Positions 10,098 to 48,042 of a stretch of 64,000 nucleotides of DNA are shown here, piece by piece. Position numbers and translations under genes: made by a program. Position 1 is the stretch's first letter; each line of letters opens with the position of its first letter. Source of the DNA: Candidatus Poribacteria bacterium (GTDB taxonomy: Bacteria; Poribacteria; WGA-4E; PCPOR2b); NCBI GenBank assembly GCA_965116925.1, contig OZ220744.1:1792001-1856000 (forward strand). The letters are read 5' to 3'. Below the pieces are notes generated by a model. That model made no database searches, was not told where the DNA came from, and saw nothing but the letters and a program-made list of their open reading frames with translations.

Positions 10098-11786
10098 TCA
10101 GAATAGACCTTTGAATTGCATCTGCTCATTAGCAGGAATATTACGCCACTTGGCGGCAGACCACGGGGAAATGTCCCACAATTTGATGGTTCCATCAATT
10201 GCCCCCGATGCGAGCATATCTCCAGTTGGTGAATATGTTATAGAGCAAATCCAACCTTCATGTTTCTCAAATGTAGCTATCTCCTGTCCGGCTTCAACTG
10301 ACCAAAGTTTGATGACATAGTCATTAGTTCCCCAAGCAATCACATCTCCAATTGGCGAAATAGCTACCTCCCAGCCCAAATCTTGGTATCCGTTAAATGT
10401 AACTATCTCCTGTCCTGTTTTTGTTGACCACAGTTTGACAGTATCATCCTCTGATCGTGACGCAATTATATCTCCAGTTGGCAAAAATGCTACCCACCAG
10501 ATCCAATCTTCGTGTCCATAAAATGTAGCTATTTCCTGCCCTGTCTTAATTGACCATAGTTTTATGGCTCCATCCTGTGCCCCCGATGCAAGCATGTCTC
10601 CAGTTGGTGAATACGTTACGCAGTTAATTCGACTCTCGTGTCCGTAAAATGTAGCTATTTCCTGTCCTGTCTTAATTGACCACAGTTTTATGGCTCCATC
10701 CTCTGCTCCTGATGCAATCATATCCTCAGTTGGAGAAAAAGCCACAGGCCAGACACCGTATCTGTATCCCTCAAATGTAGCTATCTCCTGTCTTGTCTTA
10801 ATTGACCATAGTTTGCCGGTGCCTCCTGCAACCAAAGCAATCGTATCCCCGGTTGGCGAAAAGCCTGTCCACCAGACCCTACCTTTCGGTCTCTCAAATG
10901 TAATTATTTCCCGTTCTGCTTCAATTGACCACAGCCTGACAGTTCCATCATCCGCCCCTGATGCAATCGCATCTCCGACTGGCGAAAAGGCTACTGAATA
11001 CACCCGCTTTCCGTGTCCCTTAAATGTAACTATCTCCTGTCCTGTTTTAGTTGACCACAGTTTGACAGTTCCATCCTCCGCTCCTGATGCAAGCATATCT
11101 CCTGTTGGTGAATATGCTACCGAACTGACCCTAGCTTCATGAGAGAAGATAGCGATTGGTCGTTTAGCTACAGCCCGTCGTCTTTGTTCGACCTTCTCTT
11201 TCTGTTTTTCGGTTTCAATCCATCTTTCGTATTCGCTAAGAATTTGTAATGCTACACTACTTGAGCTGCCTTTAAGAAATTCGACAGCTATCTGTTTGAT
11301 AAGTCCATCATCGAAACCATTTTGACTATATAGGAGATATTGAATAAGGGGAAGGAATTGATCAAATGAATCAGGATAAATCTGGAGTTGGACAAACAGT
11401 TGATAAACTGCTCTGTTCCTTACGTTCGGATTGTTTAATTTTAACCGAGGTTCAAGATAAGCGGACAATTTACCGTTAAGTCGCTTTAGTTGGTCAGCAG
11501 TTCGCATGTCAGGTTTCTTGGTAGCTGCTTCTATAATTGTCTGAAGGTTGGTGCTTTCTTCTTTCCCCCTCAAAAGAGCATGGCAGTTTCCACAGAGGGT
11601 CATGCCGTTGTCAATCTCGGTAGCAAAATCAGGATATTTTTCTAACGGTTTGATATGGTGTATATGAAGGTTGAGATGTACTCCACATACACGACAGGCA
11701 TCTCCATCGCGCTTTCTGACATCTAGTTTCCACCGTTTATATTCTGGTGATTTGCGGATATCTTGCATAAGGGTTGCCCATTTCAT
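10098..11786 (-). CDS. HNH endonuclease fused to an 8-repeat WD40 beta-propeller
   Basis: RDGDACRVCG...HHIKP...NGMTLCGNCH zinc-binding HNH domain, a helical linker, and about 42-aa WD repeats ending in LW. Confidence 0.9.
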   Translation of the reverse strand: MKWATLMQDIRKSPEYKRWKLDVRKRDGDACRVCGVHLNLHIHHIKPLEKYPDFATEIDNGMTLCGNCHALLRGKEESTNLQTIIEAATKKPDMRTADQLKRLNGKLSAYLEPRLKLNNPNVRNRAVYQLFVQLQIYPDSFDQFLPLIQYLLYSQNGFDDGLIKQIAVEFLKGSSSSVALQILSEYERWIETEKQKEKVEQRRRAVAKRPIAIFSHEARVSSVAYSPTGDMLASGAEDGTVKLWSTKTGQEIVTFKGHGKRVYSVAFSPVGDAIASGADDGTVRLWSIEAEREIITFERPKGRVWWTGFSPTGDTIALVAGGTGKLWSIKTRQEIATFEGYRYGVWPVAFSPTEDMIASGAEDGAIKLWSIKTGQEIATFYGHESRINCVTYSPTGDMLASGAQDGAIKLWSIKTGQEIATFYGHEDWIWWVAFLPTGDIIASRSEDDTVKLWSTKTGQEIVTFNGYQDLGWEVAISPIGDVIAWGTNDYVIKLWSVEAGQEIATFEKHEGWICSITYSPTGDMLASGAIDGTIKLWDISPWSAAKWRNIPANEQMQFKGLF

Positions 11787-38860: not shown

Positions 38861-40223
38861 TAAAGTTTAGACAATTTTTATTTTCTTGATGTAGCCGTAT
38901 CAAGGGTTTGTTGAATATCGTCGGCATTGATGTTTTTACCGAACATCGCAGAAACTAATCGGTTTTCCATTAAAGCCCGTAGATACCGCACCATCAACCC
39001 GCGTGTCAACTTAGCGGGTCGATACCAATCAATGCCCAATGTCTGAGTTACCTGCTCGATGGTTACCGGCGTGTCAGTATGGGAAGTGACAGCGAATAAC
39101 AGTTGGGTCATGCAACTGGCTATGAAACTGAGTTGGACAAACCGATTGATACTTTTTCGACACTTGACCCGATAGGTGTCAAATCCGAAGTGTTGCTTGG
39201 TGTCCCGAAAGGCGGTCTCAATCAACCATCTCTTTTGGTAGTATCGCACAATCTGCGGTAAATCTAGGGTTAAGTCAGTGGTAAAGACACAGAAGTATCG
39301 AAACGGCTTACGCCTTTTGTCACGCGTTCGCATCACCACGACACGAACGGGTTGTGGACACATTTTGGTTCGGGCGACTATACTTGCTATGGCATACTGT
39401 TTGTCGTCAATGTCAGTCGTTTTATACCGCAGATACGGCAGATGAATCCGTTTGCCGTATCTCTTAGGTCTGCCGGGTTTGGATTGCTTGGCAGCGGTAG
39501 GTAACCGATAGAACACTGCATTCGACTTGGCACGACACAACAGGTGATGTCCCGCTTTAAGGACACAGCCAAACACTTTCTGTCGAGCGAATCCCCGGTC
39601 AAAGATAATCAGTCCCGCAGGGAGGCGGCTGCACATCCGTTTGAGGACTGACTCACTAGTGTCGCGCTTTGTCTGTGGACACATCAACTTGACAAACACC
39701 GGAAACAGTATCGTCTCGTGGACGGTGCTACAAAGTAATCCCAATGCACCAAACTGATGACCATGGTGAAACTTCGATTGATTCGTGTTGCGTGTGTGAT
39801 AGCGATGGTTCCTGAAAAAATGAAGTCCAAATTGTGTCTCGCCGGTCTTTCGTGCGTGCGTCTCATCGTAAACGTAGACCCAGTTATCGAAACACCTCTG
39901 TAACAACTTCAGCAGATGGTGACCGACTCTATCGGCGTCCCACTTGCCACGCGAAAGGAACTTCACCAGCGAGTGGTAACCCGTTTTCGGACGAACCGCT
40001 TGATAAATGCCGGTCAGCGTCGCACCTTCGCGCTGTGTGATAAGTCCCACAACAAAGACACAAAACAGATGAAAGTTTTGAGACTTGAATAACGGACGAA
40101 AATCGGTTAAAATAGCATTCAGGCAGAATATGAGGTACATAACTTCTCCTTTCAAAATTGTGATGGATTTCTGAAAGGATAACCTCTTTTCTGCCTTTTT
40201 GCATTAAAATTGTACTAACTTTA
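38861..40223 (-). mobile_element. IS701/IS4-like insertion sequence (ends approximate)
   Basis: Imperfect inverted repeats taaagtttagacaatttt and aaaattgtactaacttta flank the transposase. Confidence 0.65.
38878..40140 (-). CDS. DDE transposase, IS701/IS4-like
   Basis: YDET, FDRGF and YQKRWLIETAFRDTKQHFG (YREK-like) motifs. Confidence 0.9.
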   Translation of the reverse strand: MYLIFCLNAILTDFRPLFKSQNFHLFCVFVVGLITQREGATLTGIYQAVRPKTGYHSLVKFLSRGKWDADRVGHHLLKLLQRCFDNWVYVYDETHARKTGETQFGLHFFRNHRYHTRNTNQSKFHHGHQFGALGLLCSTVHETILFPVFVKLMCPQTKRDTSESVLKRMCSRLPAGLIIFDRGFARQKVFGCVLKAGHHLLCRAKSNAVFYRLPTAAKQSKPGRPKRYGKRIHLPYLRYKTTDIDDKQYAIASIVARTKMCPQPVRVVVMRTRDKRRKPFRYFCVFTTDLTLDLPQIVRYYQKRWLIETAFRDTKQHFGFDTYRVKCRKSINRFVQLSFIASCMTQLLFAVTSHTDTPVTIEQVTQTLGIDWYRPAKLTRGLMVRYLRALMENRLVSAMFGKNINADDIQQTLDTATSRK

Positions 40224-40419
40224 ACGCAAGTTGCTAGTTATATGCGAGGCAGTAAAAGGCGACTCCCAATATCCGTAGGTCGGGCATCTTGCCCGACTCA
40301 TAGCCCCAGCGGGGCGACATGTGTATAGAAAACAGGATAAAACCAGCCTTAAAGCCCCAGCGGGGCGACATGTATGTGGTATCGTAACACAACTAGCAAC
40401 TTAGGTTAACTTTAGTATA
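40211..40419. mobile_element. MITE-like element with 29-bp inverted ends carrying three REP-type hairpins
   Basis: Ends tgtactaactttaacgcaagttgctagtt and aactagcaacttaggttaactttagtata match at 24/29 by eye. Cargo is one GTAG REP and two copies of agccccagcggggcgacatgt. Confidence 0.75.
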
Positions 40420-40848: not shown

Positions 40849-41364
40849 ATGACTCATGAGCATCAAGAGACGCACGATGCTGTACTCATTTCTTTGAGAC
40901 GCATCATCCGCGCGATTGATCTCCGCTCAAAGAACCTCGCGCAACATCACGGACTCACCGTGCCACAACTGGTTGTTCTTCAAGAGGTTAACCGATCAGG
41001 AGAGATACCAGCCGGTCAGTTGGCGAAGAACGTTAGCCTCAGCAACGCAACCGTCACAGGAATTCTCGACCGGCTTGCAAAGCGCGAACTGGTGGACAGA
41101 AGGCGTAGCGGTAATGATAAACGCCGCGTGCTCGTAAAACTCACCAGGAAAGGGACAGAGATGCTTTCCAAGGCACCTTTGTTACTTCAAGACCGTTTTG
41201 TGTCCGAATTCAGCAAACTTGCCGATTGGGAACAAAACCTAATTCTCTCGTCGCTGCAAAGAGTCGCTCACATGATGGAAGCAAAAGACCTTGATGCGGC
41301 GCCTCTGCTTGTCAGTGGAGAGATTTCCGGAACAACCGAAGCCCAAAAGGATCTACTACTATAA
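40849..41364 (+). CDS. MarR family regulator, EctR/CosR-like
   Basis: VLISLRRIIRAIDL...GLTVPQL...DKRRV...WEQNLILSSLQRVAHMM...AAPLL, typical of the EctR/CosR subfamily. Confidence 0.88.
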   Translation: MTHEHQETHDAVLISLRRIIRAIDLRSKNLAQHHGLTVPQLVVLQEVNRSGEIPAGQLAKNVSLSNATVTGILDRLAKRELVDRRRSGNDKRRVLVKLTRKGTEMLSKAPLLLQDRFVSEFSKLADWEQNLILSSLQRVAHMMEAKDLDAAPLLVSGEISGTTEAQKDLLL

Positions 41365-41426
41365 TTCAAAGTCCGCTAGTTCCTATACGAAAATCGATGC
41401 AAACTATTCATGCCAAGGAGGTAAAA

Positions 41427-42695
41427 ATGGACGATAAAGAAGCTCAGTTCACTTACAAGGCGGCAGTCGCTGATGGATTCTATCAGCGTAATATCGGGGG
41501 ACTGACGGGCAAGTACGACAACGTGCGTCGTTATTGGGAAGACCAGATTACCCGCTATGTTCTGCACGATTTCATTGAGGGATTTGTCAATGAGAAACGG
41601 CAGCTACTCACCCGTATCCGCGTGCTCGATCTCGGCTGCGGCGCGGGGGAAGGCTACGAGATTTTGACGAATCCGAGCCAGAGGACGCTCTGTCTGGCAA
41701 CCAAAGAGGTCGATGTAATGCCCGCCGAGATGTTGGACTGCTACAAGGGGATTGATATCAGCGAGGCAATGGTCGAGCAAGGGCGTAAGACATACAATGA
41801 TAGTCCTAAAATGACGTTTGAGATCGGGGATCTCAGCCAAGGGCTTTCGACAGCGACGGATGATCCCCCTTATGATATTTACTTTTCGTCCTACGGTTCT
41901 CTCGCTCACCTCAAAGACGACGACTTTCGGCGATTGGTAAAAGAGATTTGCAACCATTTTCAGGACAGATGCGTTTTTGTCGCTGACATGCTTGGGCGTT
42001 ATTCCTATGAATGGCAGTGTTATTGGGATGAACAAGGCTCAGACGAAACCAACATGCGGCAGTATTCGATGTCCTACCTCTATCCACCGGAGATAATCGA
42101 TCAGATTGAGGTCGAACGGTTCCCGATGCGCTATTGGGGCGGGAAAGAGTTTGACGAGGCCATGTCAGAGATCGCTGTTGAAGCAGGTGTTGAGATTACT
42201 CGACGAACACTTAACGATCGTTCCATCATCGTCGGGCGACACATGGACACCGCAGAATACAATCCCTACGCTCAACCGCTTCGTGATGTAGTGAATCAAT
42301 TACACGAATTCAACTATCGAACCGACCTGCAAGGACTGATATTCGATTATTCACCGCTCCCCGACCATCCAGAACTAAACACCTTTTTCGAGCAGTTTCA
42401 AATGGCGTGGAACGCTGTTGTCTATGCGTGCATTGAAGCCCTGGAATATGGGGAAAATGGTGACTGGCAACCGCCAGAGATTCCAGCCGAATATCCCGAT
42501 GTTCTTACCGAGGCGATTCATACGATTCGGGATGTCATACGGAATCTAAAATGGTTCCGCATGGGCGACCCACTTGCAAACATCGTTGAACCACAGCTTG
42601 GGTATATTCTTCGTAATCTGGAGCAAGGTCTTCAAAGCGGACTCGGTGCCGGGCATGGATTGCTTGCGGTGTATGAACTCTCGAAGGAGAAATAG
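41427..42695 (+). CDS. Class I SAM-dependent methyltransferase, substrate unknown
   Basis: RVLDLGCGAGEG and GIDISEAM motifs, AAGGAGG RBS, long C-terminal extension. Confidence 0.85.
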   Translation: MDDKEAQFTYKAAVADGFYQRNIGGLTGKYDNVRRYWEDQITRYVLHDFIEGFVNEKRQLLTRIRVLDLGCGAGEGYEILTNPSQRTLCLATKEVDVMPAEMLDCYKGIDISEAMVEQGRKTYNDSPKMTFEIGDLSQGLSTATDDPPYDIYFSSYGSLAHLKDDDFRRLVKEICNHFQDRCVFVADMLGRYSYEWQCYWDEQGSDETNMRQYSMSYLYPPEIIDQIEVERFPMRYWGGKEFDEAMSEIAVEAGVEITRRTLNDRSIIVGRHMDTAEYNPYAQPLRDVVNQLHEFNYRTDLQGLIFDYSPLPDHPELNTFFEQFQMAWNAVVYACIEALEYGENGDWQPPEIPAEYPDVLTEAIHTIRDVIRNLKWFRMGDPLANIVEPQLGYILRNLEQGLQSGLGAGHGLLAVYELSKEK

Positions 42696-42700
42696 ATCCG

Positions 42701-43678
42701 ATGATTGTGCTTCGAGACTTGAGCAAATCTTTCGATGGCAGGACGACGTTTGCTGTCCACAATCTCTCGCTAGAGGTGCAGGAGGGAGAAACGCTTGTAC
42801 TGCTCGGATCTTCAGGCTGTGGCAAGACCACGACGCTGAAAATGATCAATCGCCTCATCGAACCGACTTCGGGAGAAATCGAGGTCGATGGTGTCAATGT
42901 GCTCCAGAAGGACGTGGTTGAATTGCGTCGTTCAATCGGTTACGTATTTCAGAGCATCGGTCTCTTTCCACACATGACGATTGAGGAAAACGTGACAATC
43001 GTCCCACGACTGCTCGGTTGGTCTGAGGAACAAAAGCAGAACCGAGCCAAAGAACTGCTTGCGCTTGTCCAACTCGATCCTGACCAATATGCGTCTCGCT
43101 ATCCGCATGAACTTTCAGGTGGTCAACAGCAGCGCGTCGGCGTCGCACGGGCACTCGCCGCCGATCCGGATTACCTACTGATGGACGAGCCCTTCGGTGC
43201 ACTCGACCCAATTACCCGCGAGGCGGTTCAGGAGGAGTTTGCCCAACTCGAAGCAATAATTCAGAAAACGATCGTGTTCGTCACCCATGACGTGTTTGAA
43301 GCTGTAACGCTCGGTGACCGTATTGCCATCATGGAAGCGGGCGAAATCGTCCAACTCGGAACGCCAACGGAGTTACTGACACAACCGGCGAATGTTTTCG
43401 TCAGCAACTTTTTCAGCAAACACCACTTCCAATTGCAGTTCAATGCCCTGTCTGTTGGAGACTTTATCCGTCTTGATGCCGGCGTACAGACGGCTGTCGA
43501 TTCGACGGCAGTCTCCGTATCCCCAATGGAAAATCTCGGTGGTGCGGTGGATTTGATGCGAAAACACCAGCTTTCAGAGTTGCCCGTTGTGGATGGTCAA
43601 GTTGTTGGTGTATTACGCAGTACTGACTTGGTGGAGGCACTTGTCGGGAAACGGAATCAATCATACGGTCGAGAATAA
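42701..43678 (+). CDS. Osmoprotectant ABC transporter ATPase (OpuCA/OsmV-like) with CBS-like tail
   Basis: GSSGCGKTT, LSGGQQQR and MDEPFGALDP motifs. Confidence 0.93.
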   Translation: MIVLRDLSKSFDGRTTFAVHNLSLEVQEGETLVLLGSSGCGKTTTLKMINRLIEPTSGEIEVDGVNVLQKDVVELRRSIGYVFQSIGLFPHMTIEENVTIVPRLLGWSEEQKQNRAKELLALVQLDPDQYASRYPHELSGGQQQRVGVARALAADPDYLLMDEPFGALDPITREAVQEEFAQLEAIIQKTIVFVTHDVFEAVTLGDRIAIMEAGEIVQLGTPTELLTQPANVFVSNFFSKHHFQLQFNALSVGDFIRLDAGVQTAVDSTAVSVSPMENLGGAVDLMRKHQLSELPVVDGQVVGVLRSTDLVEALVGKRNQSYGRE

Positions 43679-43683
43679 TCATA

Positions 43684-44319
43684 ATGAGGTCATTTGTCAA
43701 TTTTCTCCAAGAACGTGGTAACGAAATTCTATCGTTGACAGTTGAGCACTTGTATCTCACCGGAATCACGATGGTATTCGCGATTATCGTCGGTGTATTA
43801 TTGGGCCTCCTTCTGACGCGGTTTGAATGGCTTGCGACGCCGATTCTCGGCGGGGCAAACGTCATTCAAACCGTGCCAAGCCTCGCTATTTTGGGGTTTA
43901 TGATTCCCCTGTTTGGGATCGGCGCGACACCGGCAATTGTAGCGCTCTTTCTGTACGCGCTGCTGCCAATTATTCGGAACACCTACACCGGCATTGTTGG
44001 CGTTAATCCGGCAACCGTCGAAGCCGCCCTTGGTGTGGGCATGACGCAACGACAGGTGCTGAGGTTGGTCAGATTGCCGCTGGCACTCTCCGTTATTATG
44101 GCGGGGATTCGCACCTCAACAGTCATTTGCGTCGGCATCGCTACTCTCTGTGCCTTTATTGGCGCAGGGGGTTTAGGTGAGTTAATCTTCAGCGGGATTT
44201 CAATGGTAAACGCAAGCATGATTCTCGCGGGAGCGATTCCTTCGGCGTTGCTAGCGTTGATTTTGGATTTTGGGTTAGGATTGATTGAGAAACTGCTCAC
44301 ACCAAAGGGACTTAGGTGA
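43684..44319 (+). CDS. Osmoprotectant ABC transporter permease
   Basis: QTVPSLA, LYALLPIIRNT, EAA loop and IGAGGLG motifs. Confidence 0.93.
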   Translation: MRSFVNFLQERGNEILSLTVEHLYLTGITMVFAIIVGVLLGLLLTRFEWLATPILGGANVIQTVPSLAILGFMIPLFGIGATPAIVALFLYALLPIIRNTYTGIVGVNPATVEAALGVGMTQRQVLRLVRLPLALSVIMAGIRTSTVICVGIATLCAFIGAGGLGELIFSGISMVNASMILAGAIPSALLALILDFGLGLIEKLLTPKGLR

Positions 44320-44458
44320 AATGATTGGCACTGTTGTGGTGCCATCATCGAACACCTCCGTCCTGATAGGAAAGGGGCGCCATCCTCTCAAATTGTTCAA
44401 CAGTCCTCAAATCGAGATGCGATTTGAGAGGGGAGTAGATAAACGGGAGGGACTTTAG

Positions 44459-45343
44459 ATGTTAAAACAGAGGCTAACTATTTTCATCCTAATTGCACTA
44501 TTCGGTATCACTGCTTGTGGTGATGGCGAAAAGAAAGTCGTTATCGGCTCAAAAGAATTCACAGAATCAGTGATTTTACGCGAGATGATGGCGGCGTTAA
44601 TCGAAGCCAACAGCGACATCAAAGTCGAGCAGAAATTCCTCGGCGGTACGCTAATCTGTTTCAATTCGCTCACGAGTGGTGACATCGATCTTTACGCAGA
44701 ATATACCGGAACAGCGTTGATGGCGATTCTGAAGCAAGCACCGATGACCGACTCACAGAGAGTCTACGATACAGTTAAGGAGAACTTCAAAAATCTGTAT
44801 CAGCTTGAGTGGCTGGCACCTTTCGGTTTCAACAACACTTATGTCTTGACAATGCGAAAAGATCATGCTCAAGCACTCGGCGTTGAAAAAATCTCCGATT
44901 TGGACACCCATCTTGATACCCTGAAAGCCGGTTTTACGCATGAGTTTTTGGAACGCCCGGACGGTTATCCCGGTTTGACGGAGCACTACGGTCTAAAATC
45001 GACACAGAAGCCGAAAGGGATGGACCCCGGCTTGATGTACAAAGCCATCGCCGAAAAACAAATCGATCTAACCTCTGGGTTTGCGACGGATGGGCGCATT
45101 CCCGCCTTCGATCTCGTGATGCTTTCTGACGACGAGGGGTTCTTTCCGCCCTACTACGCTGCTCCCGTCGTGCGGTCAGATACTTTGGGTAAATATCCTG
45201 AACTTAAGGGCATTTTGGGCAAACTCGCGGAGAGAATCGATGATGCAACGATGGCGCAACTCAACTATGAAGTTGATGAAAAAGAACGGGCTGCCGCCGA
45301 AGTTGCGAAGGATTTTCTGCAAAAACAAGGACTAATTCCATAG
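44459..45343 (+). CDS. Osmoprotectant (betaine-type) ABC substrate-binding lipoprotein
   Basis: ITAC lipobox, GSKEFTE, EYTGT, GFNNTY and FFPPY motifs. Confidence 0.93.
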   Translation: MLKQRLTIFILIALFGITACGDGEKKVVIGSKEFTESVILREMMAALIEANSDIKVEQKFLGGTLICFNSLTSGDIDLYAEYTGTALMAILKQAPMTDSQRVYDTVKENFKNLYQLEWLAPFGFNNTYVLTMRKDHAQALGVEKISDLDTHLDTLKAGFTHEFLERPDGYPGLTEHYGLKSTQKPKGMDPGLMYKAIAEKQIDLTSGFATDGRIPAFDLVMLSDDEGFFPPYYAAPVVRSDTLGKYPELKGILGKLAERIDDATMAQLNYEVDEKERAAAEVAKDFLQKQGLIP

Positions 45344-45357
45344 GAGGAAAATCAACG

Positions 45358-46872
45358 ATGTGTGGAATTGCAGGAATCTGGGGGATGGAGGATGTCACGC
45401 TAGTGAAAGAAATGAACGAGAAGCTGTCCCATCGCGGGCCGGACGCTGAGGGGTTGTATCGCTGCCCACACGGACACGGTACCCTCGGACATCGAAGACT
45501 TTCAATTATGGATCCTGAAGGTGGGAATCAACCGCTGTATAACGAGGAAAAATCCAAAGCCATTGTCGCAAACGGTGAAATCTACAATTTCCCGGTGTTG
45601 CGGAAGCAGTTAGCGGAAGCCCATACCCTTCACACAGGCAATGACAGCGAAGCCATTCTGCACCTGTACGAAGACCATGAGCAGACCGTCGTTGATCACC
45701 TTGAGGGTATGTTTGCTTTTGCTATCGCCGATGGTGAAAACTTATTCGCTGCACGCGACCCTATCGGTATCAAACCACTGTACTATGGTCAAAAGGAAGG
45801 GGCGTTCTACTTTAGCTCGGAATTGAAGGCGTTCCCCAAGCAGATGGAAGCGGTCAATGAATTTCCGCCGGGGACGTGGTATCACTCCGACAAAGGTTTC
45901 GTGTCTTTCTATGAGATTCCCAATCACCGTCCACTAGAAGTACCGCTTGCTCTTTGTCTTTCTGCCTTGCGAGAGAAGCTTGAAAAATCGGTGACCAAAC
46001 GCTTGATGAGCGACGTGCCGCTAGGGACTTTCCTTTCAGGTGGGCTTGATAGCAGCATCATCGCCGCAATCGTCCGACAGCACATGGACGAACTGCACTC
46101 TTTCTCAGTCGGTATTGAGGGAAGTCGTGATTTAGAAGCAGCGCGCATGGTCGCTCGACATCTGGACACTGTCCACCATGAGTACATCTTCACCCCCAAA
46201 GAAGTTCTAGAAATCCTTCCTGACGTGATTTATTATCTTGAATCGTTCGATCAAGATCTGGTGCGGAGCGCGATTCCCTGCTATTTCGTCTCCCGGTTGG
46301 CGAGCGAAAAAGTGAAGGTCATCCTGACAGGGGAGGGTGCCGACGAACTTTTCGCTGGCTACACCTATTACAAGAACATTTTTGACAACGAAACGTTACA
46401 TCGCGAATTACGCCGATCTGTAGCGGCACTACATAACATCAACCTTCAGCGCGTCGATCGGTTGACGATGGCGCACGGACTCGAAGGGCGTGTGCCGTTT
46501 CTTGATCTGGAAATGATTAATCTCTCGCAGACCGTTCCACCTTCGCTCAAATTGTACGATGATGGAAAGGGACGACGAATTGAAAAATGGATTTTGCGAA
46601 AGGCGACAGAAGATCTGTTGCCTAAAGAGATTGTTTGGAGAGACAAAGCGCAGTTTGACGAGGGCAGCGGCACAGTTGATCTCCTGCAAAGCGCAATTGC
46701 CGAGAAAATGACATCTGAAGAAGCGGACGAATACCGTTCGGCACATCCAGAAATCCGTCTGCGGTCGCCAGAGGAATGCTTTTACCATCGAATTTTCACT
46801 GACGCCTTTGAGTGTCCAAAGCTAATTAGCCAAAATGTCGGACGGTGGGGAGAGCGTCCTGCGTTTGAATAA
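45358..46872 (+). CDS. asnB: Asparagine synthetase family glutamine amidotransferase
   Basis: MCGIAG, HRGPD, NGEIYN, LSGGLDSS, GEGADE and RVPFLD motifs. Confidence 0.9.
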   Translation: MCGIAGIWGMEDVTLVKEMNEKLSHRGPDAEGLYRCPHGHGTLGHRRLSIMDPEGGNQPLYNEEKSKAIVANGEIYNFPVLRKQLAEAHTLHTGNDSEAILHLYEDHEQTVVDHLEGMFAFAIADGENLFAARDPIGIKPLYYGQKEGAFYFSSELKAFPKQMEAVNEFPPGTWYHSDKGFVSFYEIPNHRPLEVPLALCLSALREKLEKSVTKRLMSDVPLGTFLSGGLDSSIIAAIVRQHMDELHSFSVGIEGSRDLEAARMVARHLDTVHHEYIFTPKEVLEILPDVIYYLESFDQDLVRSAIPCYFVSRLASEKVKVILTGEGADELFAGYTYYKNIFDNETLHRELRRSVAALHNINLQRVDRLTMAHGLEGRVPFLDLEMINLSQTVPPSLKLYDDGKGRRIEKWILRKATEDLLPKEIVWRDKAQFDEGSGTVDLLQSAIAEKMTSEEADEYRSAHPEIRLRSPEECFYHRIFTDAFECPKLISQNVGRWGERPAFE

Positions 46873-47025: not shown

Positions 47026-48042
47026 ATGAATGCCGCATTACTTCCATTCCATTACACCCACTCACCAACGCTACCCAAACTGCTCTGGGAATTGCGGTGT
47101 ACGCTGGTGTTCAGCACCTACCAAGCGGGCAAGGTTATCTTTATCCGCGCCACCAGCCCGGAGACGATTGAGCAGCGCGCCCTGGACTTTCCCAGACCGA
47201 TGGGATTGGCGGTCTCCGATCAGCGGATCGCAGTCGCTACGCGGGAGGAGGTGGTGGTGCTTACCAATACTTCGGCAGAAGGCTCCACTGAGTCCCTGCA
47301 TGTTGATTCCGGATCTGTGATTAGAGCGGCAGCACACTCCTATGTGCAGGAGAAGACGTACTTTAGCGGAGAGGTTGACACTCATGACCTCGCTTGGGGA
47401 AAGGATGGACTGTGGGCAATCAACACCCTCCTTTCATCCGTAGCTTTGACAGACGAAAAATCTGATTTCGAGGCAGAATGGCGTCCTCCGTTCGTCAGTG
47501 ACGTAGTGCCAGAAGACCGCTGTCATTTGAACAGTATGGCGATGGTGGACGGTCAACCTGAGTATGTGACGGCATTTGGGAAGGTGAACACCTTTGAGGG
47601 TTGGCGCGAGAACAAGGTATCAGGCGGGATTTTGATGGATGTTCCCAGCGGAGAGATTGTATTGGAAGGATTACCGATGCCACACTCCCCACGGGTGTAC
47701 GATGGGAAACTCTATCTGCTGCTCTCCGCGACTGGGGAGTTAGTGTGTGCCGAACCCGAAACGGGGGGGTACGAAGCGGTTGCTCAGTTGCCCGGCTTTG
47801 TGCGTGGAATGGCACGTTGTGGTGATTATCTGTTTGTGGGATTGTCAAAGCTGCGAAAGACAAGCTCGACCTTCGCAGCGCTGCCAATCTCCGAGCAAGC
47901 GGCGTTCAGCGGCATTGTAGTCGTGTCTCTATCCGAAGGACGTATCGTTGAGCACCTCAGATATGAGACAGGTGTTGAGGAGATTTATGATGTGCAGGTT
48001 TTGACGGAGGGGTCAGCCAGTGACACTGTTCCTCCGTCGTAA
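47026..48042 (+). CDS. TIGR03032 (DUF4915) family protein
   Basis: STYQAGK, WRPPF...PEDRCHLN, GWRE, MPHSPR and EEIYDVQVL motifs. Confidence 0.88.
   Translation: MNAALLPFHYTHSPTLPKLLWELRCTLVFSTYQAGKVIFIRATSPETIEQRALDFPRPMGLAVSDQRIAVATREEVVVLTNTSAEGSTESLHVDSGSVIRAAAHSYVQEKTYFSGEVDTHDLAWGKDGLWAINTLLSSVALTDEKSDFEAEWRPPFVSDVVPEDRCHLNSMAMVDGQPEYVTAFGKVNTFEGWRENKVSGGILMDVPSGEIVLEGLPMPHSPRVYDGKLYLLLSATGELVCAEPETGGYEAVAQLPGFVRGMARCGDYLFVGLSKLRKTSSTFAALPISEQAAFSGIVVVSLSEGRIVEHLRYETGVEEIYDVQVLTEGSASDTVPPS

Follow-up and report, generated by a model that had tools for sequence, protein, structure and literature searches.

Organization of the locus

Six genes lie in one orientation on the + strand of the window (the whole 64,000-nucleotide stretch of Candidatus Poribacteria DNA that was analysed), as the initial annotation had described. 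The first (40849-41364) encodes a 171-aa EctR/CosR-like MarR repressor (PF01047). It is followed by genes for a class-I SAM methyltransferase (MT; 41427-42695, 422 aa, Methyltransf_25, PF13649), an Opu/ProV-type ABC ATPase with a CBS domain (42701-43678; PF00571, above the cut-off of proV TIGR01186), an Opu-type ABC permease (43684-44319; PF00528, with best NCBIfam matches to ProW/ChoW, below cut-off), an OpuAC/ProX-type substrate-binding protein (44459-45343; PF04069) and an AsnB-clade glutamine-dependent amide synthetase (AsnB; 45358-46872, 504 aa, NF006949 above cut-off). The intergenic gaps, in gene order, are 62, 5, 5, 139 and 14 bp, and the spacings first reported, 5 bp from MT to the ATPase and 14 bp from the binding protein to AsnB, are correct. 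An ATG behind AGGAGG gives the 422-aa MT, and an upstream ATG would give 432 aa. Scans of the region for promoters (9 vs 6.7) and terminators (5 vs 6.3) were at chance level, and Rfam gave no match there.

The stretch is present in 20 of 24 listed public runs, mostly sponge metagenomes, of which 7 are RNA. When contigs from four runs were compared, the best RNA contig was identical to the DNA contig and extended evenly across the neighbouring genes, and therefore does not demonstrate transcription or co-transcription. In contigs from one study the MT frame is broken by a 17-bp deletion.

The host genome is 99% complete and was searched as a whole with profiles. Neither ectoine synthase (positive control detected) nor any betA above cut-off was found, and the NAGGN acetyltransferase TIGR03103 was absent from the window and, at 1e-10, from the genome, with a weak control that fell below cut-off in the control genomes. 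The initial annotation had likewise noted no ectABC, betAB or NAGGN acetyltransferase here, and ectoine was rejected as the product. MttB is also absent from the entire host genome.

The methyltransferase

The predicted structure of MT (pLDDT 87.9) has a Rossmann core with a helical insertion at about residues 270-410. A sequence search yielded 1053 homologues. The SAM motif DLGxGxG and many Arg, Trp and Tyr residues are invariant. DLGxGxG and PF13649 place the protein among class-I Rossmann SAM-binding enzymes, a fold common to many unrelated methyltransferases. Nothing specific was found among solved structures with the single sequence (E up to 1) or a 46-sequence profile (E up to 0.01), and the fold search returned only generic class-I methyltransferases at 10-18% identity. 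The glycine betaine enzyme GSMT (5gwx) is Foldseek rank 1 at 14% identity (Z 15.8, rmsd 3.7, 226 aligned), yet other class-I methyltransferases score equal or higher. MT has no sequence match to GSMT or SDMT, though GSMT structures were present in the bank searched, and no GSMT/SDMT match in NCBIfam at 1e-3, in agreement with the earlier remark that it is not recognisable as a glycine/sarcosine methyltransferase. Judged by sequence, MT belongs to an uncharacterised class-I family.

Of 176 genomes from the host phylum just 1 has this family, which is nevertheless present in at least 16 other phyla. Its distant relatives (28-34% identity) lie in operons of folate genes, in prophages and in dioxygenase clusters of Streptomyces, and the wider family is therefore not restricted to osmolytes. 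Ergothioneine synthesis (EgtD/EgtB, EanA/EanB) was rejected, since MT does not match Methyltransf_33 (PF10017) at 0.01 and no sulfur-insertion gene (sulfoxide synthase, rhodanese) occurs among the annotated neighbours at MT loci.

Conservation of the linkage

Gene neighbourhoods were compared at 88 MT loci, made up of the best 80 of 400 genome hits and 8 metagenome loci; counts over these loci are not independent, because 27 are cyanobacterial kin and because best hits were sampled. An AsnB of the same clade lies within 7 kb of MT and on the same strand in 40 of the 88 loci, from 8 named phyla, and in 21 loci the distance is under 400 bp. The Opu importer adjoins MT in 31 loci, AsnB and Opu occur together in 10, and 68 loci have at least one of AsnB, Opu or the ligase described below. 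Two complete proteins, P0369 (934 aa) and P0372 (901 aa), are AsnB-MT fusions. Conservation across phyla and gene fusion place the MT-AsnB-Opu linkage far beyond chance, and the operon, of which the window holds one copy, is widespread and uncharacterised. The linkage on which the initial annotation relied is thus conserved.

Among 40 genomes with an AsnB-less locus, 10 hold a 59-67% identical AsnB copy elsewhere, in 3 of them beside a second MT. In a 121-genome sample of the Calothrix parasitica family the AsnB clade occurs in 4 genomes, all carrying MT. Photoautotrophic Rivularia and Calothrix have asnB-MT with no transporter in the locus, and Mastigocoleus genomes have MT with neither partner module. 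A complex prediction for AsnB with MT scored 0.00 and counts neither way.

The AsnB-like amidotransferase

AsnB is annotated as asparagine synthase B, is the sole protein of that kind in the host genome, and scores 588.9 bits against NF006949 (cut-off 499). Its closest solved relative is asparagine synthetase B (E. coli 1CT9, human ASNS; E 4.6e-100), with which it shares the Cys2 glutaminase site, the SGGLDS loop and, as E326/D329/E330/R365/K430, the equivalents of human E364/D367/E368/R403/K465; the roles of E364/D367/E368 are described in the accessible text of PMC6748925. The pocket for the amino group is altered. Measured against the E. coli and human references, the aspartate amino-group pocket (human E364, D367, D400) is incomplete, with N362 at the D400 position, and D300/L301 stand at the T336/T337 positions. 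Of the linked AsnB proteins, 42 of 43 have N or A at the D400 position and most have D/L at the T336/T337 positions, and these changes are common to all 120 top homologues, compared by sequence irrespective of gene context. Some AsnB paralogues lack Cys2.

The initial annotation had allowed that AsnB might be the housekeeping asparagine synthetase. None of 60 host relatives carries it (search at 1e-60), GatB is present in the host genome, and no AsnRS scores above cut-off there; for these reasons AsnB is not the housekeeping enzyme in this host. Its patchy, MT-tied distribution and N362 agree, and that reading was rejected. It is barely credible that an unrelated methyltransferase merely happens to adjoin an everyday betaine importer and an asparagine synthetase with a housekeeping role. 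The annotation of AsnB and its being the only one of its kind would fit this, but the cross-phylum linkage and the fusions contradict it.

In NAGGN synthesis an AsnB-family amidotransferase (TIGR03104) neutralises a carboxylate. The asnO-ngg system resembles the operon in having such an enzyme for the carboxylate of an amino-acid osmolyte. The operon's AsnB differs in its 504-aa length, in a TIGR03104 score of 283.5 bits (cut-off 570.1) and in having a methyltransferase as partner; together with the lack of TIGR03103 in the genome at 1e-10 (weak control), this led us to reject NAGGN as the product.

An alternative partner module

At 18 of the 88 loci the place of AsnB is taken by a glutamate-cysteine-ligase-like enzyme together with a specialised paralogue of ProA, and some of these loci add an aldehyde reductase. 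No locus among the 88 has both modules, and C. parasitica carries both at separate loci. By fold the ligase-like enzyme is a glutamate-cysteine ligase of the plant type. The linked ProA proteins group in a separate clade (FastTree 0.999), with NASTM for NASTRF in 15 of 15, and in 15 of 21 genomes the linked ProA is additional to another copy; it passes the family cut-off and keeps the E383-equivalent glutamate (compared with the accessible part of PMC8763031). The C. parasitica cluster runs from ProA-ligase to an Ahr aldehyde reductase and an SDR joins ProA-ligase in 3 loci, a reductase being present in only 4 of 19 ligase-ProA clusters. No ProC was seen in these clusters. In four Ignavibacteria/Bacteroidota MAGs the linked ProA is the only one and ProB was not found, so that proline synthesis may be all that the module does in them.

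On the MT tree, a quick tree on which several partner-swap forks have support of only 80-89, AsnB- and ligase-linked proteins interleave, and at no column of the MT alignment do 16 AsnB-linked proteins differ consistently from 14 ligase-linked ones. For both reasons the MT substrate looks, from sequence, to be common to the two modules. Each module would activate a side-chain carboxylate.

Transporter, regulator and other neighbours

The ProV ATPase with CBS domain, the permease and the OpuAC binding protein constitute an Opu importer. The closest solved relatives of the binding protein, with similar scores, are OpuBC-derived sensors, A. fulgidus ProX, EgtUC and OpuCC, and its aromatic residues Y82, Y128, Y194 and F208 align with those of betaine/choline binders. 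In such binders these residues form the trimethylammonium cage.

The MarR protein is 42-49% identical to MarR genes adjoining ectABC or proVWX in three of three annotated plasmid regions. EctR/CosR regulators at ect/bet/opu clusters span about 25-50% identity in the accessible parts of PMC13342039 and 10.1101/845297. The fold and identity of the operon's MarR fall within this class when it is compared with cluster-borne MarR genes, not with EctR1 or CosR themselves. In 7 of the 88 loci a MarR gene is found no more than 7 kb from MT, and MarR genes also head further clusters. According to the accessible parts of the same sources, ectABC and betIBA-proXWV clusters share this MarR subfamily beside solute synthesis and ProU/Opu uptake; the operon differs in having no ect or bet genes and in its co-oriented regulator at the operon head. 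The EctR/CosR label given earlier is apt in sequence and gene position, with the caveat of a host-genus paralogue (61-66% identity) that precedes a DEAD-box helicase instead.

MscS lies near MT in 3 loci, and MetK or MetK with AhcY adjoins it in 2. Glycine-betaine methylation (GSMT/SDMT) clusters likewise hold SAM-cycle genes and betaine transporters, as far as the accessible text of PMC7824335 goes. In Coleofasciculus (5 loci) MT has a tandem glutaminase as its neighbour, as it does in an unrelated cyanobacterium (67% identical), and in the 121-genome sample the clade of this glutaminase, at 79% or more, is present in 3 of 4 genomes with MT and AsnB and in 0 of 117 others. GgpS is absent in 4 of 5 MT-carrying cyanobacteria tested. 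The locus L071 has a nitrilase-family amidase.

MttB occurs near MT in 32 of 88 loci, some of which also encode a corrinoid protein, a methyl-THF methyltransferase and a domain for B12 activation. One clade of MT is accompanied by a pair of MttB paralogues of the non-pyrrolysine type, together with a methyl-THF methyltransferase and a corrinoid protein. This set resembles the MtgB/MtgC/MtgA betaine:THF methyltransferase systems (MttB superfamily), which differ in being catabolic and having no SAM enzyme. Because the window's genome has no MttB, MT can work without such systems.

Proposed function

We think it probable, if by no wide measure, that the operon makes a compatible solute, an acidic amino-acid betaine with its spare carboxylate amidated, and that Opu recaptures it. 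MT would N-methylate an acidic amino acid with SAM, probably to a trimethylammonium betaine and most likely starting from L-glutamate, less likely L-aspartate. The AsnB-clade enzyme would then activate the spare side-chain carboxylate as acyl-AMP and amidate it with glutamine-derived ammonia, to yield glutamine betaine or asparagine betaine, each of them a neutral zwitterion. Opu would recapture leaked product or import related betaines, and the EctR/CosR-like MarR may repress the operon at low salt. In other bacteria the same carboxylate would be taken by the ligase-like enzyme to an acyl phosphate, by the specialised ProA to an aldehyde and by the aldehyde reductase to an alcohol.

The initial annotation's methylated and amidated amino-acid osmolyte gains support, at the level of sequence, from the conserved linkage, the fusions and a non-housekeeping AsnB; we also count Opu, the EctR/CosR-like MarR, MscS, the MetK/AhcY neighbours and the absence of GgpS in its favour. 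Counting against the proposed function are the generic fold matches of MT, the AsnB pocket changes common to all 120 top homologues, the two modules at separate loci in C. parasitica, the four MAGs with linked ProA only, the small share of ligase-ProA clusters with a reductase, the Mastigocoleus genomes with neither partner, the varied surroundings of distant MT relatives and the broken MT frame in contigs of one study. Within the osmolyte reading we give glutamate about two thirds of the weight and aspartate one third or less: ProA, the glutamate-cysteine-ligase-like enzyme and the co-distributed glutaminase favour glutamate, and the closeness of AsnB to true asparagine synthetase B argues for aspartate. 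Glycine betaine synthesis by GSMT/SDMT (Halorhodospira, Aphanothece, Methanohalophilus) and Trichodesmium homoserine betaine are likewise cases of SAM-dependent amino-acid N-methylation to a betaine, as proposed here; no Trichodesmium record is among the 80 genome MT loci kept (best 80 of 400). MT differs from GSMT/SDMT in lacking a sequence match, in its 422 aa with a large helical insertion and in its obligate-looking carboxylate-acting partner.

The partners may instead act before MT and supply precursors, AsnB making asparagine (or glutamine) and ligase with ProA making proline, either of which a broad MT would methylate to asparagine betaine or proline betaine; the operon would still be an osmolyte operon. 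The family scores of AsnB and linked ProA, their retained E364/D367/E368 and E383 equivalents and the four MAGs with linked ProA only are in keeping with this. We consider it unlikely, however, since partners are exchanged between close MT relatives that no residue sets apart, so that one pocket would have to fit both Asn and Pro, the clusters contain aldehyde reductases and no ProC was seen in them, and ProA as well as AsnB has an altered pocket.

Rather unlikely, in our view, is a non-osmotic methylated small molecule (an antioxidant, a cofactor/pterin derivative or a nitrogen store) that Opu serves as EgtU serves ergothioneine. The nearness of the binding protein to EgtUC, the distant MTs among folK/folP-like/SDR genes and in prophages, the regulation of other genes by the EctR-like paralogue in the host genus, and some carriers from non-saline sites (going by record titles) point that way. 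Against it, the neighbours of the close MT family still include Opu, MscS and EctR-like genes in different phyla, folate-linked copies are less than 35% identical, and no annotated locus has a sulfur-insertion gene.

The initial annotation had also allowed for import followed by modification, in which Opu takes up an environmental betaine or amine (e.g. from a sponge host), MT and AsnB remodel it and the anaerobe MttB pair demethylates it for carbon and energy. Although Opu (31/88 loci), MttB with its corrinoid, methyl-THF and B12-activation partners and the amidase of L071 suit such a scheme, we regard it as quite improbable: the host genome has no MttB, and SAM- and ATP-consuming steps with MetK/AhcY neighbours suit synthesis. 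Making is favoured over importing because Rivularia and Calothrix have asnB-MT with no transporter in the locus.

Significance

A search of the openly accessible literature, main texts only, found neither an account of an MT-AsnB-Opu operon nor genes named for glutamate betaine. Glutamate betaine was reportedly obtained from Calothrix strains. The accessible parts of PMC4390839, PMC6753628 and PMC7824335 report it as a cyanobacterial osmolyte since 1984 and name no genes for it. The operon may point to these genes, for which it offers a two-enzyme, directly testable candidate, and marine Nostocales without GgpS need another solute. If the reading is true, methyltransferases would gain a new family, homologues of AsnB, ProA and glutamate-cysteine ligase that now carry housekeeping annotations would acquire new roles, and the marine and sediment cycles might include new methylated nitrogen compounds.

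A bolder version, possible but doubtful, has MT as a glutamate-betaine synthase heading a modular osmolyte family that ends in an amide (glutamine betaine, by AsnB, as here) or an alcohol (5-hydroxynorvaline betaine, by the ligase homologue as kinase, the re-tuned ProA and aldehyde reductase). In anaerobes the B12/MttB pair would add or recover methyls via methyl-THF, a dedicated glutaminase would reverse the amide, and the product would be a main osmolyte of marine Rivularia, Calothrix, Coleofasciculus and many sediment anaerobes. The simplest version to reconstitute is the window's MttB-free copy, and cultured carriers of MT are Calothrix parasitica NIES-267, Calothrix sp. CCY 0018, Phormidium sp. 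CCY1219 and Mastigocoleus testarum BC008.

Operon structure and acquisition

The operon at 40849..46872 of the window is real, conserved and mobile. Its six co-oriented genes, separated by gaps of 62, 5, 5, 139 and 14 bp, encode an EctR/CosR-like MarR regulator, a 422-aa class-I SAM methyltransferase (MT, 41427..42695), a ProV-type ATPase with a CBS domain, a permease and an OpuAC binding protein of a betaine-type ABC importer (Opu), and a 504-aa AsnB-family enzyme (AsnB, 45358..46872); the co-orientation and the 5- and 14-bp spacings reported in the initial annotation were confirmed. An IS701-family transposase gene (38878-40155, minus strand; NF049999 over the cut-off) lies 700 bp upstream, and two copies of a short GC-rich, REP-like repeat, the 22-base core of which has 28 exact copies in the genome, occupy 40292-40373. 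A TIGR03032/DUF4915 gene (47026-48042, plus strand) begins 153 bp after asnB and was not seen in the related loci.

The operon is a unit that the host genome, a single 6.47-Mb contig of 99% completeness, has acquired. None of 60 host relatives gave an MT match, and a profile search placed it in 1 of 176 genomes of the host phylum, that one being the host; AsnB was found in none of the same 60 relatives at E 1e-60. The sole other AsnB-like gene of the host is 29% identical. Where GatB occurs without AsnRS, Asn-tRNA can be made without free asparagine, and since the host genome contains GatB and no AsnRS over the cut-off, the host has this route. Near-identical DNA is present in sponge metagenomes. 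In DNA- and RNA-library contigs from one study (X6, X8), a 17-bp deletion at window 42194 breaks the MT frame near codon 256, and the operon may therefore be dispensable in the symbiont; the deletion is absent from contigs of two other studies (X13, X18).

The methyltransferase family and its gene neighbourhood

MT belongs to a large, uncharacterised family, with 1053 homologues carrying generic names only in a protein search. Relatives are encoded in 400 of 422 candidate stretches of the genome collection; the best 80 of the 400 were kept and, with 8 metagenome loci, make up the 88 loci compared here, in which 16 named phyla are represented. No solved structure matches MT in sequence beyond the SAM motif. 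The structural model (pLDDT 87.9) is a Rossmann methyltransferase with a helical insertion; glycine/sarcosine methyltransferase is the top Foldseek match, at 14% identity, and ranks eighth in VIA-align (Z 15.8, rmsd 3.7, 226 residues aligned), and because such fold matches are generic they do not name the substrate. In one relative, P0398, a universal-stress-protein-like domain, as read from sequence, is fused at the N-terminus.

Conservation of the MT-AsnB-Opu linkage was borne out: AsnB occurs in 40, Opu in 31 and both together in 10 of the 88 loci. These counts take in genes up to 7 kb from MT. The AsnB clade is found across 8 phyla, always on the same strand and, in 21 loci, less than 400 bp away (a looser count, with no score or distance limits and with the window included, gives 42), and an Opu permease or binding protein is found across 10 phyla; MarR and MscS lie within this distance in 7 and 3 loci. 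Two proteins, P0369 (934 aa) and P0372 (901 aa), are AsnB-MT fusions in which both parts are complete. The 88 loci include non-independent kin, 27 being cyanobacterial, and neither the cross-phylum spread nor the fusions depend on these. In a family sample, 121 genomes from the family to which Calothrix parasitica belongs, MT is matched in 12 (8 closely) and the AsnB clade in 4, all of them MT carriers.

AsnB and the alternative ligase module described below are both missing from 30 loci, many of which end at contig edges. Ten of 40 genomes with an AsnB-less MT locus hold an AsnB copy of 59-67% identity elsewhere. In the three of these genomes that were looked at more closely, the copy shares a second operon with a further MT, a pair of MttB genes and a corrinoid protein gene. 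Four Mastigocoleus-like loci (L029, L031, L032, L048) have MT upstream of a putative mycosporine cluster, read from N-terminal sequences, with no AsnB or ligase in the locus. By alignment, four loci encode circularly permuted OpuAC binding proteins with the C-terminal lobe first (L067:6162-7103, L069:11564-12574, L072:11646-12602 and L076:7257-8219).

In the version of the system associated with anaerobes, MttB accompanies MT. It lies nearby in 32 of the 88 loci, and all but two of these (30) fall in a single MT clade; some of these loci add a corrinoid protein, a methyl-THF methyltransferase and a B12 activation domain. The two MttB proteins may remove methyl groups after down-shock, or may supply the first methyl groups from methyl-THF. 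MttB was not found in the host genome, so MT needs no B12 partner. Desulfomonilaceae and Syntrophales (L109, L110, L111) carry two MT paralogues, the second in an operon with two MttB genes, a corrinoid protein and two AsnB paralogues, one of which is without Cys2.

Exchange of AsnB for a ligase-ProA module

A protein with the plant-type glutamate-cysteine ligase fold is present in 18 of the 88 loci (7 phyla), accompanied in 16 by a ProA paralogue, and in no locus together with AsnB. The 61 non-cyanobacterial loci divide into 20 with AsnB only, 18 with the ligase only, 23 with neither and none with both. No AsnB above 49% identity was found in the 18 ligase-locus genomes, and the module occurs at a separate place in 1 of 28 AsnB-locus genomes, that of C. 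parasitica, as a stand-alone unit away from the asnB-MT pair with the order ProA, ligase, Ahr aldehyde reductase (L106:278-4170, minus strand). Three other loci add an SDR. On a quick tree, AsnB-linked and ligase-linked MTs interleave (for example L064/L074, L067/L076/L072, L087/L078, and L049 amid AsnB-linked proteins), and within the MttB clade 16 AsnB-linked MTs cannot be told from 14 ligase-linked ones by any single column of the alignment.

The ProA proteins of the module group in one clade (0.999). Their NASTRF motif is changed to NASTM in 15 of 15, the arginine being kept in 14 of 16 others; of the two that lack it, one is itself a member of the linked clade. The changed arginine stands 12 residues before the glutamate equivalent to E. 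coli E383, a residue that PMC8763031 places in the active site and describes as governing substrate choice. A further ProA is present in 15 of 21 ligase genomes and ProB in 17 of 21; its absence from the other four speaks against a special role for the linked ProA.

AsnB chemistry converts a carboxylate to an amide via an acyl-AMP. The other module would yield an alcohol, by way of a ligase-type acyl phosphate followed by ProA and an aldehyde reductase. Two interchangeable ways of removing one negative charge suggest that the substrate of MT is an acidic amino acid; as a betaine, this would have a net charge of minus one.

A predicted osmolyte pathway

On the best reading, the operon makes an amino-acid betaine in amidated form and recaptures it. 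The methylated and amidated amino-acid osmolyte proposed in the initial annotation is supported as the best reading by the linkage, the fusions and the module exchange, from which the chemistry is inferred. We consider it somewhat more likely than not that an acidic amino acid is both methylated and amidated, and the wider reading probable once it includes a variant in which AsnB, or the ligase with ProA, makes ordinary amino acids before MT acts. The operon is predicted to work in the manner of GSMT-type betaine synthesis and NAGGN-type amidation, although MT and AsnB are not members of those respective families. No ectoine synthase was found anywhere in the host genome, in a search whose positive control gave a match, nor was betA over the cut-off or an NAGGN acetyltransferase, in agreement with the absence of ectABC, betAB and the acetyltransferase noted earlier. 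We found no description of an MT-AsnB-Opu operon or of glutamate-betaine genes in the openly accessible literature.

In all three annotated regions read, the regulator next to ectABC or proVWX shares 42-49% identity with the operon MarR; this is the position that 10.1101/845297 and PMC13342039 describe for EctR/CosR. The subfamily is not exclusive to solutes, since the host and 10 of 18 genus members have a paralogue that, in the genomes read, precedes a DEAD-box helicase gene (L089:10477-11007, corresponding to host genome 110515-111006, and L117-L121); in the host it is also upstream of a fatty-acid-desaturase-like gene, these genes being named from sequence. The operon binding protein is equally like ProX, OpuBC/OpuCC and EgtUC. 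MetK, or MetK with AhcY, adjoins the MT cluster in two loci, paralleling the SAM-cycle genes of glycine-methylation clusters (PMC7824335). GgpS is absent from 4 of 5 MT-carrying cyanobacteria tested. Many MT record titles name marine, soda-lake and salt-lake sources, and groundwater, reactors and hot springs also appear. Elsewhere in the host genome there is another Opu system, in which the binding protein is fused to the permease (L090:5843-8223; host genome 881917-884183).

Glutamate or aspartate as substrate

Several observations favour glutamate. Both ProA and the ligase belong to glutamate enzyme families. Five Coleofasciculus loci have a tandem glutaminase gene placed between asnB and MT, and a 67% identical one is near a more distant MT in another cyanobacterium. 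The close glutaminase clade (at least 79% in the second domain) is present in 3 of the 4 family-sample genomes with both MT and AsnB, and in none of the 117 others, whose best matches reach 64-66%. Glutamate betaine is also reported as a cyanobacterial solute in PMC4390839, PMC6753628 and PMC7824335. Aspartate is favoured by the close kinship of the amide enzyme with asparagine synthetase B, and reduction would in that case give homoserine betaine, a compound already known (PMC6753628).

In the AsnB pocket, the residues corresponding to human E364, D367 and E368 are retained. The position of D400, one of three residues modelled around the charged amino group in PMC6748925, is N or A in 42 of 43 linked AsnB proteins, and the T336/T337 positions are D/L in most. 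Such a pocket would fit an altered amino group on the substrate; it is no proof of one, because all 120 top homologues, their gene context unseen, have the same changes.

Distant relatives of the methyltransferase

More distant MT relatives (28-34%) are found within folate-gene operons, alongside AsnB-like synthetase domains in prophage-like regions, and in clusters of Streptomyces, and given these other contexts the proposed function should not be extended to them. Phage- or prophage-like regions with a 32-34% relative are found at L113:5004-7361 and 10512-11153 and at L159:6404-7597; in L113 the relative faces AsnB-like synthetase-domain genes next to a terminase-like gene. These genes are possibly a nucleic-acid or metabolite modification system. 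A cyanobacterial operon adjoining folK (L160:3897-9344, L163:5354-9467) combines a 29-32% relative with Nudix, SDR, DHPS-like and HAD proteins, a possible pterin-modifying pathway. A Streptomyces plasmid cluster (L114:11962-16229, L115:11917-16239) contains a distant MT, a LysE exporter, a HAD phosphatase and two probable 2-oxoglutarate dioxygenases, one of which has a Pfam match.
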